A stretch of 42,522 nucleotides of DNA from Saprospiraceae bacterium (GCA_033762055.1 JANRLZ010000061.1:1-42522), one strand, 5' to 3'. Positions 7,641 through 39,043 are shown, counted from the first letter of the stretch. Numbers and translations are program-made. Notes: a model not told the origin generated them from the sequence alone.

Positions 7641-7800
7641 GTTTCGACTGCTATGTTTCCGAACGTTCTCTCATGTTATTAAAGCGCCATTTTATCCCGA
7701 ATAATTGATTTCTAATCTAAATTTTCCAACATTAGACAACACGCTTTGTTCCTTTGCATCGCTTCTTTGAAAGAACATTTCCAAATCAATAATAACAACA

Positions 7801-8526
7801 ATGAAAAAAACGCTCTTTTTTGCAGCATTCCTCTTTATTTTCTCCGGCTTCGCCCAGGCACAAACCGCGGAAGAAATCGTTGCCAAACACATTGCAGCCA
7901 TCGGTGGCGATAACTGGAAACGCGTGGAAGCGGTAAAATCCGAAGCCAAAATCTCCGCCGACGGCGCTCCGGGTATGTCTATTATGATGACCATGGTTGC
8001 CGTACGCGACAAATCGCTCCGTATGGACGTATCTGTGATGGGCATGACACAAACCACCGTGCTGAATGGCGACGGCGGATGGGCTACCAACCCTTTCATG
8101 AACAAAATGGAGCCGGAGCCGCTTACTGCCGATCAGGTGAAAGCCATGCGCGACATGACAGACGTGGACGGCACCTTGATCGGGTATAAAGACAAGGGAT
8201 ATACCCTCGAATACGTTGGCACAGAAGACGTAGATGGCACAGAAGCCATTAAAATCAAGGTATCCAAGGGCGACAAACGCTATGAATATTCTTTCTTCGA
8301 TCCAAGCAGTTACTACGAAATCAAGAACGTGCGCGTTGAAGAAATTGACGGCAAAGAATCCGAAACAGCCACGATCTATTCCAATTTCAAATCGCAGGAC
8401 GGACTGGTATTCCCCTTCACCATCCAGCAAGCCGACCCGATGATGGGCGGTTCCACCGTAACTGTTACCGGCGTGACGATCAATCCGATGGTAGACATGA
8501 AAACTTTTGAAATGCCTTCGAAGTAA
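7801..8526 (+). CDS. Secreted LolA-like / outer-membrane lipoprotein-sorting-like protein (uncertain family)
   Basis: The signal peptide is MKKTLFFAAFLFIFSGFAQAQ. The 241-aa protein looks beta-rich. The N-terminal AEEIVAKHIAAIGG..W motif reminds me of LolA-fold proteins. It sits immediately upstream of the BNR protein. Confidence 0.4.
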   Translation: MKKTLFFAAFLFIFSGFAQAQTAEEIVAKHIAAIGGDNWKRVEAVKSEAKISADGAPGMSIMMTMVAVRDKSLRMDVSVMGMTQTTVLNGDGGWATNPFMNKMEPEPLTADQVKAMRDMTDVDGTLIGYKDKGYTLEYVGTEDVDGTEAIKIKVSKGDKRYEYSFFDPSSYYEIKNVRVEEIDGKESETATIYSNFKSQDGLVFPFTIQQADPMMGGSTVTVTGVTINPMVDMKTFEMPSK

Positions 8527-8552
8527 TCACAACCCGTGATTTCCTCTCTACG

Positions 8553-31243: not shown

Positions 31244-31568
31244 GGTGGTGCAAATAATTTTAAGTGTAAATTCTACAATAAGTAGATGGCCGCAAAATTA
31301 AAAGAATATAGCCAACCGACATGAATAACAAAGCAATAATTTATGCAAAAAAACGATTTGTAAGCAAAAATAGCACGGGGCCGACAAAACGGAGAGGAGA
31401 AACCTGTCATGCACAAACCTTCTAAGTGTTAATTTTACAAAAAGTATGTTTTGCCCCTTTTTGCTGTAATCCAAAAAAATACGGGTAAAATGTTTGATAA
31501 ACCTGCAGGGTTGCGTTCCTTTGCACCCTGAAAAATTGACTTTTTTTCACCAACAAGTTTTGAAAAAC

Positions 31569-31808
31569 ATGGCAAACGTAGCCGACCGCGTAAAAAAAAT
31601 CATCATTGACAAACTGGGTGTTGACGAATCTGAAGTAACCCCCGGTGCCAGCTTCATCAACGACCTCGGCGCCGACTCGCTCGATACCGTAGAACTCATC
31701 ATGGAGTTCGAAAAAGAATTCGACGTGTCTATCCCCGACGAACAAGCTGAAGGTATTCAGACGGTAGGTCAAGCAATTGCTTACCTCGAGCAAAATGTCA
31801 ATGCCTGA
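31569..31808 (+). CDS. acpP: Acyl carrier protein
   Basis: I chose the ATG at 31569 (79 aa). The phosphopantetheine attachment motif is [16 protein letters not shown]. Confidence 0.95.
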
Positions 31809-31858
31809 TTTTAAAGGATTGGCTGGTTCTTAATAGGCCCGCTCCTTTTGGCGAAAAA

Positions 31859-36193: not shown

Positions 36194-36850
36194 ATGCGTT
36201 ATCTGATTTGTCTGACCATTTTTTTATTCGCTGCCGCATTTCGTCCCGGCGGAGCCCCTCCCACACTCAAACTTGCCCTGCTCAAATACAGCGGCGGCGG
36301 CGATTGGTACAATGATGTAAACTCCCTCAAGAACCTTGCACGTTTTTGCAACGAAAACCTGCGTACCAACTTCGATGCAAGCGATTATGCAACGGTTGAA
36401 CCCGGCAGTGCTGAAATTTTTAACTACCCGATTATTTATGCCACCGGCCACGGAAATATGTTGTTTAATGATTTGGAAGCCCGCAACCTGCGAGCCTACC
36501 TCGAAGGCGGCGGCTTTTTGATCTTAAACGACGATTTTGGCCTCGATCCCTTCGTCCGCCCGGCCATGAAAAAGGTGTTTCCCGAACTCGATTTTGTGGA
36601 ATTACCATTCAGCCATCCGATTTACCACCAAAAATTCAACTTTAACAACGGGATGCCCAAAATTCACGAGCACGACGGCAAACCTGCACAGGGTTTCGGC
36701 CTCATCTACCAGGGGCGCCTGGTTTGTTTCTACAATTTTGAAACCGATCTCGGCGACGGTTGGGACGATGTGCACAACGACCCCAAAGAACTCCGCACCA
36801 AAGCCCTGCAGATGGGCGCCAACATTGTGCAATTTGCGTTTGGACAGTAG
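36194..36850 (+). CDS. DUF4159 domain-containing protein
   Basis: I chose the ATG at 36194, which gives an N-terminal hydrophobic segment. The segment LKYSGGGDWYND...GGFLILNDDFG matches my recollection of DUF4159. Confidence 0.55.
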   Translation: MRYLICLTIFLFAAAFRPGGAPPTLKLALLKYSGGGDWYNDVNSLKNLARFCNENLRTNFDASDYATVEPGSAEIFNYPIIYATGHGNMLFNDLEARNLRAYLEGGGFLILNDDFGLDPFVRPAMKKVFPELDFVELPFSHPIYHQKFNFNNGMPKIHEHDGKPAQGFGLIYQGRLVCFYNFETDLGDGWDDVHNDPKELRTKALQMGANIVQFAFGQ

Positions 36851-36882
36851 TTTGGACAGTAAAGTGGGTCCGTTTAAAATGC

Positions 36883-36921
36883 AGAAGGCGAGGGTTGGTC
36901 AACCCCCGCCTTCTTTTATTT
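36883..36921. terminator. Bidirectional rho-independent terminator (DUF4159 gene and the convergent Cys-rich sORF)
   Basis: The stem AGAAGGCG-A-GGGTTG with CAACCC-C-CGCCTTCT spans 36883-36914. It is followed by TTTATTT on the plus strand and by GCATTTTA on the minus strand. Confidence 0.7.
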
Positions 36922-36943
36922 CAGCCGTGATGGCGTTGCGCGC

Positions 36944-37117
36944 TTATTCTTCGCAGCAAGGCAGGTCACAGCAGGGCATGTCGCAGCAGCTTTGATCGGC
37001 TGTCGTGCATTCGCTGGTGGGAACACAACATTCCGAACCCATAGCACCGGAGAAAGAAAAAGCGATTCCGGCGGAAAGAAGCAAAGCAGCCACTACGGCC
37101 AACGTTTTATTTTTCAT
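36944..37117 (-). CDS. Unannotated 57-aa secreted Cys-rich acidic peptide
   Basis: My manual translation is MKNKTLAVVAALLLSAGIAFSFSGAMGSECCVPTSECTTADQSCCDMPCCDLPCCEE, ending in TAA. It falls below the 60-aa cutoff of the ORF track. It has a signal-peptide-like N-terminus, 9 Cys in the last 29 residues, an A/T-rich start context, and a terminator about 30 nt after the stop. Confidence 0.55.
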   Translation of the reverse strand: MKNKTLAVVAALLLSAGIAFSFSGAMGSECCVPTSECTTADQSCCDMPCCDLPCCEE

Positions 37118-37219
37118 TATGTAAAATGCATTGAATGTGAGAAGAATGGGAGACCGGAGAACATATCCGGCTGTCCCGTTTGAATAGGTGCTGCACGAAA
37201 GCAGCGCATCAGAAAAGAC

Positions 37220-37582
37220 TCAGGCAGTCATAGCGGGTGGCTTCCAGATGGAACGCAAGACTTGTTGCGGACAAAAATGCTGGATATTACTCGGCAAACC
37301 CGAGTTTGTTTCTGCAGAAACCGGGGCAGCATGAATCACCGGACGTTCCGGCACCAAACATAGACAACAGCAAGGGCCGTTGGAACAACACACCGGCAGG
37401 GCACAATCCTTGTTCTTTTCGCAATCATTTTCTTCGCCCTGCCCGGAGCAATCGGTAACGCCACTCGAAGAAATTAGCACGCAAATGCCTGCCATAAAAT
37501 CACAATTCTCGTTCACCGCTCGCGGGGGAGCGGTGGACTGCAAAAGCGAAATGGAAAAAAGAATGGCGAGCAAACGCTCCAT
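37220..37582 (-). CDS. DUF6660-like small Cys-rich protein
   Basis: The 120-aa protein has an N-terminal hydrophobic segment (MERLLAILFSISLLQ), the Cys cluster CALPVCCSNGPCCCLC, and a C-terminal SIWKPP motif. The last resembles the IWQPP(K) ending I recall for DUF6660. Confidence 0.5.
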   Translation of the reverse strand: MERLLAILFSISLLQSTAPPRAVNENCDFMAGICVLISSSGVTDCSGQGEENDCEKNKDCALPVCCSNGPCCCLCLVPERPVIHAAPVSAETNSGLPSNIQHFCPQQVLRSIWKPPAMTA

Positions 37583-37762
37583 GTGTCATGGAATTGTCAG
37601 CGCAAAAGAAAAGACAATTTTGAAAAAGTTGCATGTTCGGGCAAATAAACTTTGACGGACAGGCGCCGACGATCACGAAAAATCATCAAAATCCTGCCGA
37701 TTAGATTGTAGGAACGCAAGACGTTTTACCTTCGCAGCGCCCTGAAACAGGGCATTTTTTCA

Positions 37763-39043
37763 ATGCGCATCCTTCTTCTTGGTTCCGGTGGCCGCGAACA
37801 TGCAATGGCATGGAAACTGGCACAAAGCAAACGTTGTTCCCAACTGTTTATCGCACCCGGCAACGCCGGAACGGCTGCCTGCGGCCAAAACATCCCGATT
37901 TCCCCGCTCGACTTTCCGGCAGTGGAAAAGTGTGTGCTGGAAAACAAGATTGAAATGGTGGTTGTGGGCCCCGAAGACCCGTTGGTACGAGGTATTTGGG
38001 ACTATTTTCAGGAGCATTCCGCATTAAAAAACATACCGCTGATCGGCCCTTCCAAAGCCGGGGCCGTACTGGAAGGCAGCAAAGCCTGGAGCAAAAAATT
38101 CATGGCCCGTCATGGAATCCCGACCGCTGCCTATCGCGAATTTACCCTCGATGAACTCGAAGAAGGTTGTCAATACCTGAAAGATCATGCCCTGCCCATT
38201 GTTTTGAAAGCTGATGGACTGGCAGCCGGGAAGGGAGTGGTGATTTGCCAAAGTCATGCTGAGGCAGAAACTGAATTTCGCGAAATGCTGGGCGGAAAGT
38301 TCGGCGCAGCCGGCGAACGAATTGTGGTAGAAGAATTCCTGAGCGGCATTGAATTCAGCGTTTTTGTGCTGACCGATGGAAAAACCTACAAAATTCTGCC
38401 GGAAGCCAAGGACTACAAACGCATTGGAGAAGGCGATACCGGCCCCAACACCGGCGGCATGGGGGCCGTAAGTCCCGTACCGTTTGTAGATGAACAAATG
38501 TGGGATAAAGTGGAAAAACGAATCATTCAGCCGACGGTTGCCGGCTTGAAAAAGGAAAAAATTCCGTATAAAGGCTTCATTTTCTTTGGGTTAATTAAAG
38601 TGAATGACGACCCTTATGTCATCGAATACAACTGCCGCATGGGCGACCCCGAAACCGAGGTCGTTCTTCCCCGCCTGAAAAACGACCTGGTGCAACTTTT
38701 CGAAAATTGCGCCCGTGGCACGCTCGGTCGGATAAAAATTCGCTGCGATCGGCGCTATGCCACCACCATCTTTCTGGTGAGCGGCGGCTATCCCGGCGAT
38801 TACGAAAAAGGGAAGATCATGACGGGATGGGAGAAAATAAAAGGCAGCCTCCCGTTCCACGCCGGTACCGCTGTCGGTAAAAATCCGGGAGAGGTCGCAA
38901 CTTCGGGAGGGCGTGTACTGGCGCTCACCAGCTATGGGAAAGACCTCATCGGCGCTCTTCGAAAATCAAAACGCAACGCCAAAGTCATCCAGTTCGACGG
39001 CAAATATTATCGCCGTGATATCGGAAAAGATCTCGGCGCATAA
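37763..39043 (+). CDS. purD: Phosphoribosylamine--glycine ligase
   Basis: PurD hallmarks are present: MRILLLGSGGREHAMAWKL, the ATP-grasp region VLKADGLAAGKGV, and EYNCRMGDPE. Confidence 0.95.
   Translation: MRILLLGSGGREHAMAWKLAQSKRCSQLFIAPGNAGTAACGQNIPISPLDFPAVEKCVLENKIEMVVVGPEDPLVRGIWDYFQEHSALKNIPLIGPSKAGAVLEGSKAWSKKFMARHGIPTAAYREFTLDELEEGCQYLKDHALPIVLKADGLAAGKGVVICQSHAEAETEFREMLGGKFGAAGERIVVEEFLSGIEFSVFVLTDGKTYKILPEAKDYKRIGEGDTGPNTGGMGAVSPVPFVDEQMWDKVEKRIIQPTVAGLKKEKIPYKGFIFFGLIKVNDDPYVIEYNCRMGDPETEVVLPRLKNDLVQLFENCARGTLGRIKIRCDRRYATTIFLVSGGYPGDYEKGKIMTGWEKIKGSLPFHAGTAVGKNPGEVATSGGRVLALTSYGKDLIGALRKSKRNAKVIQFDGKYYRRDIGKDLGA

Follow-up and report, generated by a model that had tools for sequence, protein, structure and literature searches.

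Positions 36944 to 37117 of a 42,522-nt stretch of Saprospiraceae DNA (hereafter the window) contain a short reading frame rich in cysteine codons, and it was asked whether this frame is a genuine gene and, if so, what its product might do. Small proteins below ORF cut-offs are routinely missed, and the frame studied here is a clean example. A reading made from the sequence alone had taken it to encode an acidic exported peptide, for which metal coordination, a disulfide-knotted structure, or a RiPP precursor were considered as possible roles.

The small gene and the layout of its locus

An ATG-started ORF of 57 aa was found at 36944..37117 on the minus strand, and its translation, MKNKTLAVVAALLLSAGIAFSFSGAMGSECCVPTSECTTADQSCCDMPCCDLPCCEE, was identical to the one given by the sequence-only reading. 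The peptide begins with MKNK followed by a 17-residue hydrophobic stretch. Its tail (residues 26-57, 32 aa) contains 9 Cys, with four CC doublets among them, and 7 Asp/Glu, as had been claimed for a core of roughly 32 aa, and it is devoid of Lys/Arg. The description of the ORF as unannotated held for the ORF track of the window only, as homologues are listed elsewhere as "hypothetical protein" in several NCBI MAGs. Model scans and a profile search of the PDB returned no Pfam, NCBIfam, or PDB sequence match to the peptide. The features of the locus are as follows.

36883..36914, no strand assigned: terminator hairpin with a 14-bp stem and a 4-nt loop, common to the small gene and the converging DUF4159 gene
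36944..37117, minus strand: small gene, encoding a 57-aa Cys-rich exported or membrane-anchored peptide (ORF, orthologues, dN/dS, RNA contigs)
36944-36946, minus strand: stop codon of the small gene
36947..37042, minus strand: codons 26-57, acidic Cys-rich tail (motif CC..C..CC-DMP-CC-DLP-CC)
37049..37117, minus strand: codons 1-23, MKNK and hydrophobic helix (Sec signal peptide or uncleaved signal anchor)
37118..37219, minus strand: intercistronic spacer of 102 nt, spanned by RNA contigs
37148..37177, minus strand: spacer stem-loop about 30 nt upstream of the ATG of the small gene (RNAalifold, fold)
37220..37582, minus strand: partner gene, encoding a 120-aa protein with an N-terminal hydrophobic helix and a Cys cluster (family alignment)
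37583..37762, no strand assigned: divergent intergenic region shared with purD (37763-39043, plus strand), from the gene layout

The neighbours in the window encode IleRS, CysRS, pyruvate kinase, an M3 peptidase, DUF4159, PurD, and an EamA transporter, and the GC content is 50.6%. The small gene lies 102 nt 3' of the Cys-rich 120-aa ORF at 37220..37582 on the same strand, which agrees with the placement reported earlier, and the DUF4159 gene converges on it, ending at 36850. No enzyme-like gene adjoins the small ORF at the window locus. The order of purD, partner, and small gene was kept in about 27 loci, and in all loci but L027 the partner immediately precedes the small gene.

A terminator had been predicted about 30 nt past the stop codon of the small gene. 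A perfect 14-bp stem was located there, at 36883-36914, between the converging genes and 30 nt past the stop; the region folds at -30.4 kcal/mol (z = -4.56 against shuffled sequences), and the hairpin is kept in the relatives L001-L003 with one loop change. The intercistronic spacer also folds better than shuffled sequences (z = -3.4). In relatives, its stem-loop has the consensus CGGAAC-N4-GTTCCG, where an RNAalifold alignment of 11 orthologous spacers gave six pairs, three of them with compensatory changes, and the stem-loop is followed by a conserved AACTTAAACTGAAATTTCACATC stretch. It carries no U-tract and the RNA contigs described below run through it; it may influence how the small cistron is processed, how stable it is, or how it is translated. 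When 36700-37900 was scanned against Rfam, the terminator hairpin gave a miRNA match attributable to chance, and there was no other match, the spacer stem-loop included.

The divergent region at 37583..37762, where no Rfam element was found, is presumed from its position to contain the promoter of the gene pair. A sigma-70 promoter match near the small gene was discounted: it overlaps the ATG, and the promoter motifs of Bacteroidota are unlike those of sigma-70. The spacer also includes a 30-aa ORF (37117-37209, minus strand; MRCFRAAP...) that ends in TAATG, overlapping the start codon of the small gene. Its counterpart in L001 is in frame with the small gene and is not conserved as a protein, and the ORF is probably not coding.

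Conservation, selection, and transcription

A search with the single peptide sequence identified only one near-identical protein (93%), which occurs on three JGI contigs with the same neighbours. For the upstream 120-aa protein, 12 homologues were found at 44-73% identity, several of them from Saprospiraceae MAGs, and each of the homologue contigs that were fetched carried a 60-61-aa ORF on the same strand, 3' of the partner gene, with the form MKNKxLAxxAAxLLSAGIAFxF...CC...CCDMPCP...CPIPCC. Scanning one genome per GTDB species for the 120-aa family gave 19 loci, all in MAGs of Saprospiraceae, Lewinellaceae, or Chitinophagales. Of the 25 loci compared at that stage, 24 carried an intact small ORF at a distance of 30-150 nt after the partner. 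A metagenome scan then added six further loci, and the small ORF was likewise intact at this position in L031-L036 and L041-L043.

Only two loci departed from the arrangement of an intact peptide gene with its partner upstream. One is L027, where the partner was lost. The other is a Lewinellaceae MAG from a long-read assembly (L023:6470-6660), where a 7-nt tandem duplication (GAATCCT GAATCCT) shifts the frame of the small gene, which represents either a recent pseudogene or an assembly error. The distal part of the L023 gene still encodes ..CCDLPCPIEDCPVPCCQASEACCSK in the +1 frame.

Differences in length among the orthologues were in whole codons, and the frame remained open across amino-acid identities of 43-93%. 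Between the window and L001, 19 synonymous and six non-synonymous differences were counted (pS 0.50, pN 0.046), giving a dN/dS of approximately 0.06, while other close orthologue pairs had values of 0.09-0.5. The small gene is therefore shown to be under purifying selection. The loss of frame conservation and the frame-disrupting indels that the sequence-only reading had named as grounds for doubt were thus not seen in 24 of the 25 loci. A profile built from 18 peptides matched 40 protein clusters, with E-values down to 1e-26, all of them labeled "hypothetical" and without a Pfam domain; such an alignment-based profile search is required to collect homologues of the peptide, as the single-sequence search is insufficient. 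The family is confined to uncultured Saprospiraceae, Lewinellaceae, and Chitinophagales, and it is unnamed and undescribed. The small gene is conserved across a whole clade of abundant wastewater bacteria.

Transcription was observed in four activated-sludge metatranscriptome runs, all from one study. Contigs at least 99% identical to the window covered 36941-37399, a region that includes the small ORF in full, the spacer, and the 3'-terminal half of the partner gene, and that was one of only three regions in the 42.5-kb window covered in all four runs. The flanking DUF4159 and purD genes had no coverage by same-organism contigs in these runs. The only variant inside the ORF was a synonymous change (37103 C>A, ACG to ACT). 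This coverage points to an abundant transcript extending over the two genes, to be read with the provisos that the RNA contigs are assembled and strandless, that contig depth is a poor measure of expression, and that DNA carry-over is possible. In 4/4 runs, the contigs start within the partner gene (37290-37399) and never reach its 5' half, which may reflect an internal transcript 5' end, a stabler 3' fragment, or lower upstream coverage.

The other two regions covered by same-organism contigs in all four runs were 7780-8543 and about 31566-31841. The former contains the gene of a 241-aa exported protein (7801-8526, plus strand), with near-full-length contigs in 4/4 metatranscriptomes; with depths of up to 15, its apparent expression exceeds that of any other part of the window. 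The latter adjoins a GATase gene. A greedy ORF list places a 123-aa ORF there on the opposite strand; judging from the synteny with L004 and L005, which encode a PP-binding (acyl carrier) protein at this position, and from a loose contig end that encodes DLGADSL, the region is probably an acyl carrier protein gene on the plus strand.

Since relatives keep the frame open with a bias toward synonymous changes and RNA contigs cover it, it is virtually certain that 36944-37117 is a genuine gene. A chance ORF, or a 3' untranslated part of the partner transcript, might be suggested by the shortness of the frame, the lack of a Pfam or NCBIfam match, and the frameshifted relative L023. Such a reading does not account for a frame kept open at 43-93% identity with indels in multiples of three, for dN/dS values of approximately 0.06-0.5, or for 40 protein clusters recovered by profile at E-values down to 1e-26, and it is effectively refuted by these conservation data.

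Gene callers misjudge the family at several loci. At L004:6502-6663, L042:1000-1227, and L043:3377-3601 (all minus strand), a spurious opposite-strand ORF is annotated in place of the true small gene, which it overlaps. A JGI model (L001:10001-10264) lengthens the orthologue to 87 aa from an upstream ATG; this 87-aa model was rejected, as the extension is not conserved and falls in another frame in the window.

The partner protein and the two membrane helices

The partner has an invariant N-terminus of the form MERLLxxLFS...PP, a Cys cluster (C-x-P-x-CC-x2-GPCCCLC-x-VPERP), and a C-terminal motif (F-x-PQQ...SIWKPP). The partner family appears to be small, because its profile retrieved only 14 proteins from 1.84 billion representatives; a profile search of PDB sequences gave no match. 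The sequence-only reading had hinted at a connection to DUF6660 (PF20365), and this hint stood in part. In a scan of the window protein, 12 homologues, four paralogues, and nine distant representatives against the DUF6660 model (gathering threshold 27 bits), the partner gave no match at E <=10, and no Pfam or NCBIfam model matched the family even at E <=10, with only a bridging sequence, P0066, obtaining a score. P0066 was the weakest of the 14 profile matches (E 2.5e-4) and itself belongs to DUF6660, scoring 37.5 bits against the cut-off of 27. An hhalign comparison of the partner family with P0066 gave a probability of 95% and an E-value of 3.5e-8 over a stretch that includes CC..VP....F-x-P....SIW[KR]PP; this link depends on one bridging sequence and mainly covers the C-terminal 48 columns.

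By these sequence comparisons, the partner is a remote relative of DUF6660 that falls outside the family by the threshold of DUF6660 itself. Both share an N-terminal hydrophobic helix, a central Cys cluster with CC, and a C-terminal F/Y-x-P...SIW[KR]PP motif. In contrast, the Cys cluster is CSPFCxCQCC in DUF6660 and GPCCCLC in the partner, which also has no His-rich stretch.

A similar comparison can be made with CopL (NF033807), a small Cys/His-rich protein that is the first in its metal-resistance operon (copLAB in Xanthomonas) and is described as activating cop expression under copper (PMC10312155). P0066 reached only a sub-threshold 21 bits with the CopL model (cut-off 40), and the 13 partner homologues scanned at 40 bits had no match. 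The partner thus differs from CopL, and the similarity, by way of P0066, is two steps removed and below threshold.

In the examples that were fetched, the genomic contexts of DUF6660, a family of small Bacteroidota proteins, are related to metals. On plasmids of Flavobacterium and Hymenobacter, DUF6660 genes precede CusA/CzcA pumps, and on an Ornithobacterium plasmid one precedes a TonB-dependent receptor and a heavy-metal P-type ATPase. On the contig of P0066, the DUF6660 gene lies 3' of a FUR-family regulator. The window copy of the partner is located between purD and DUF4159 and does not head a heavy-metal efflux or ATPase operon, and no MKNK small-peptide gene was found in the DUF6660 loci that were inspected. 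No paper in the literature search mentioned DUF6660 or HYC_CC_PP.

Additional observations were made at these loci. On the contig of P0066, a 70-aa protein with ten Cys (L037:179-391; ..GDCCVYCSYGSIPCPP..) is encoded immediately before the FUR-family regulator and the DUF6660 gene. CzcA-type RND pumps of approximately 1450 aa are found beside DUF6660-like genes at L028:6864-11258, L039:2440-6798, and L040:6489-10892, and the pump of L028 has both an ACR_tran and an OEP domain, so that a single polypeptide joins an inner-membrane pump with an outer-membrane factor.

Codons 1-23 were the most conserved part of the peptide, with a median pN of 0.167 in the N-terminal 23 residues in contrast to 0.329 in the tail. 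In the family alignments, M1, N3, K4, A10, L13, L14, G17, A19, and F22 were invariant or near-invariant. The conserved Cys columns of the tail were C30/31, C44/45, C50, and C54/55, where most relatives have CC...CCDMPCP...CPIPCC in place of the CC..C..CC-DMP-CC-DLP-CC of the window.

A Sec-type N-terminus had been proposed for the peptide, and MKNK with its hydrophobic stretch fits this description. Conserved G17, A19, and A/S21 would also fit the -5/-3/-1 pattern of signal peptidase I, with SGA|M likewise present in the window. A cleaved signal is nevertheless not secure, because signals that are discarded are seldom better conserved than the rest of the protein, and the conservation of the helix also fits a retained anchor. 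The helix of the peptide may therefore be a membrane anchor that contacts the equally conserved helix of the partner, instead of a cleaved signal. In the partner, the helix is followed by an invariant Pro-Pro, and cleavage after A-x-A would leave Pro at +1. Proline at this position blocks signal peptidase I, so that the sequence favours an anchor in the partner as well. By the positive-inside rule, both Cys-rich parts would most simply be placed outside the cytoplasm.

AlphaFold2 modelled only the N-terminal helices of the two proteins (pLDDT 49 and 56), with the helix of the peptide at residues 4-23 and no confident fold for its tail. Such low model confidence would be expected if the Cys regions need a ligand or disulfides in order to fold.

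Paralogous pairs and the proposed function

Distant peptides (P0041, P0047, P0050, and P0053) and distant partners (P0058-P0065, which have WHPP instead of WKPP) were again encoded as adjacent pairs, in L026, L028/L029, L030, L041, L042, and L043, and the L028 partner matched the partner family with an hhalign probability of 97.4%. In L028/L029, genes for ACR3 (TIGR00832, 456 bits, cut-off 283) and a metallophosphoesterase lie just ahead of the pair on its own strand, and a CzcA-OEP/CzcB pump comes after it; in L028, the ACR3, metallophosphoesterase, partner, and peptide genes are spaced by 30 nt or less or overlap, and this is the only paralogue near a CzcA pump. In L027, the peptide gene ends an operon of ArsR, ArsM, ArsN, TBDR, MIP, and metallophosphoesterase genes (ArsM 344 bits, cut-off 263). 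This locus is a second copy in a Chitinophagales MAG, where the partner is reduced to a C-terminal remnant (L027:5886-5951; ..YTQSFYESIWHPPAREVG up to the stop codon, ..SIWHPPA..) and the peptide gene is intact. In L030, the pair adjoins an ArsR/SmtB-type regulator.

Tight spacing on the same strand with verified ars genes was thus found for the paralogues of L028 and L027, in contrast to the window copy, and no metal genes were found near the pair in L026, L041, and L043. From the three metal(loid) contexts and the three without metal genes, we conclude that the pair is a self-contained unit, recruited into ars/czc islands more than once and not confined to them. A tblastn search of plasmids with a paralogous partner and a paralogous peptide returned no matches, and a literature search found nothing on Cys-rich ars proteins of Saprospiraceae.

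From this context and the remote homology, the pair is proposed to form a two-protein module of the envelope, and we consider the chances evenly balanced that its thiols bind soft metals or As(III). The idea of metal binding is supported indirectly, because DUF6660 genes precede CzcA pumps and metal ATPases and because paralogous pairs occur in ars/czc operons. The small gene is the second gene of a conserved two-gene module and is apparently co-transcribed with the partner as gene 1. Its MKNK and hydrophobic N-terminus would direct the peptide through Sec, to be cleaved or kept as an anchor, so as to leave the acidic 32-aa tail with its four vicinal Cys pairs on the periplasmic side. The thiolates of the tail would bind soft metal ions or As(III), and the tail may work with the Cys cluster of the partner, through a predicted interaction of the two proteins, as a buffer, as a chaperone to or from transporters, or as a sensor in the envelope. 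If the pair does bind metals or arsenite there, it would represent a new kind of thiol-based periplasmic buffer, of relevance to how metals and arsenic are handled in activated sludge.

Known thiol systems offer partial parallels. Like the bacterial metallothioneins and periplasmic thiolate proteins (SmtA/BmtA, MymT, CopG), the peptide is small, acidic, and dominated by Cys with CC/CxC-type spacing, and the absence of a confident fold when it is modelled alone is what a fold that depends on metal would lead one to expect. The classical metallothioneins of bacteria reside in the cytoplasm, and CopG carries a CxCC cluster. In contrast to these proteins, to which it has no sequence relationship by Pfam, NCBIfam, or PDB matches, the peptide has an export or anchor helix and an obligate partner gene.

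Vicinal Cys pairs also serve to bind As(III) and Hg(II) in ArsD and in MerT/MerF. ArsD is a cytoplasmic As(III) chaperone with Cys12-Cys13 and other CC pairs that works with ArsA, and MerT, MerF, and MerP transfer Hg(II). The peptide resembles these relays in its dominant CC doublets and in having paralogues beside ACR3, ArsM, and ArsR, and it resembles the small Mer membrane proteins in a single membrane helix with thiols. However, no homology to either was detected, no ArsA is present here, and no HMA or Mer domain was found. By analogy, the peptide functionally appears most like the thiolate metal-binding small proteins, with the export or anchor helix and the obligate DUF6660-like partner as its new elements.

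Counting against the metal reading, the window copy and most of the orthologues are located among housekeeping genes, between purD and DUF4159, and the cysteines may simply form disulfides in the oxidizing periplasm. A disulfide-rich structural or accessory peptide of the envelope with no metal role, such as a small subunit with one membrane pass whose conserved helix pairs with that of the partner in the service of an envelope complex, redox sensing, or stress signalling, is rather unlikely in our view. It would agree with the greater conservation of the helix than of the tail, as for specific membrane contacts, with a core-like, syntenic locus of high apparent expression, and with the majority of contexts being unrelated to metals. 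However, it leaves unexplained both the paralogous pairs in tight ars/czc operons and the relation of the partner to DUF6660, and vicinal CC pairs form disulfides poorly.

In a more specific proposal, the pair would be a hitherto unrecognized thiol system of the envelope in uncultured Saprospiraceae and Lewinellaceae: the peptide, a highly expressed "periplasmic metallothionein" of the core genome, would buffer or hand over soft metals and As(III) with its DUF6660-like membrane partner, and specialized paralogues would serve in operons for arsenic and heavy-metal resistance. This proposal is tentative, and we hold it to be somewhat doubtful.

A RiPP-type precursor had also been suggested; it would here have a Sec signal, and its Cys would be modified by enzymes encoded elsewhere in the genome. 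The model for such a peptide is the bufferins, Sec-signal RiPP copper metallophores that require MNIO and DUF2063 genes in their operon and have precursors of the DUF2282 or BUF_6/12Cys type (PMC11626156). Their existence shows that such metallophores occur, and the small precursor-like size of the peptide, its many Cys, and its possible Sec-type signal would agree with the idea, as would the combination of a conserved N-terminal part and a variable C-terminal part, which recalls a leader and a core; the bufferins are likewise small, exported, Cys-containing, and linked to metal stress. The sequence-only reading had noted that no maturase is adjacent, which was true of the window locus and extended to more than 35 loci, where, among the called neighbours, neither MNIO (DUF692), DUF2063, radical-SAM, nor any other maturase gene adjoined the peptide gene. 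In addition, the bufferin precursor family (DUF2282) was not matched in Pfam, and the only constant neighbour is the 120-aa protein, which has no enzyme-like fold. The RiPP alternative thus found no support and is improbable.

Even less probable, to the point of being barely credible, is that the cell secretes the peptide as a Cys-rich bacteriocin or toxin and that the upstream gene encodes a protein for immunity to it or a helper. A cassette of two small genes, one of which encodes a Cys-rich peptide with an export signal, bears a superficial resemblance to such systems. The fixed chromosomal position in many species, the strong purifying selection with no sign of diversifying selection or mobility, and the occurrence of paralogues in ars operons all speak against it; furthermore, there is no dedicated transporter, and the acidic tail is unlike most membrane-active bacteriocins.

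If the metal reading is true, the pair would provide the first functional handle on DUF6660 and on the W-x-PP group of proteins in Bacteroidota metal operons. Further small proteins rich in Cys and His, each with a helix at the N-terminus, are encoded in the same Bacteroidota metal operons (L028:6399-6803, L038:9983-10312, and L039:1351-1722). They have no Pfam match and end in aromatic-x-PP (..LFQPPRV, ..SIWLPPKI). The one in L028, a 134-aa protein ending in LFQPPRV, was suspected to be DUF6660-like and was rejected, as it fails the Pfam model and hhalign showed it to be unrelated to the partner family. A wider group of W/Q-PP proteins may exist.
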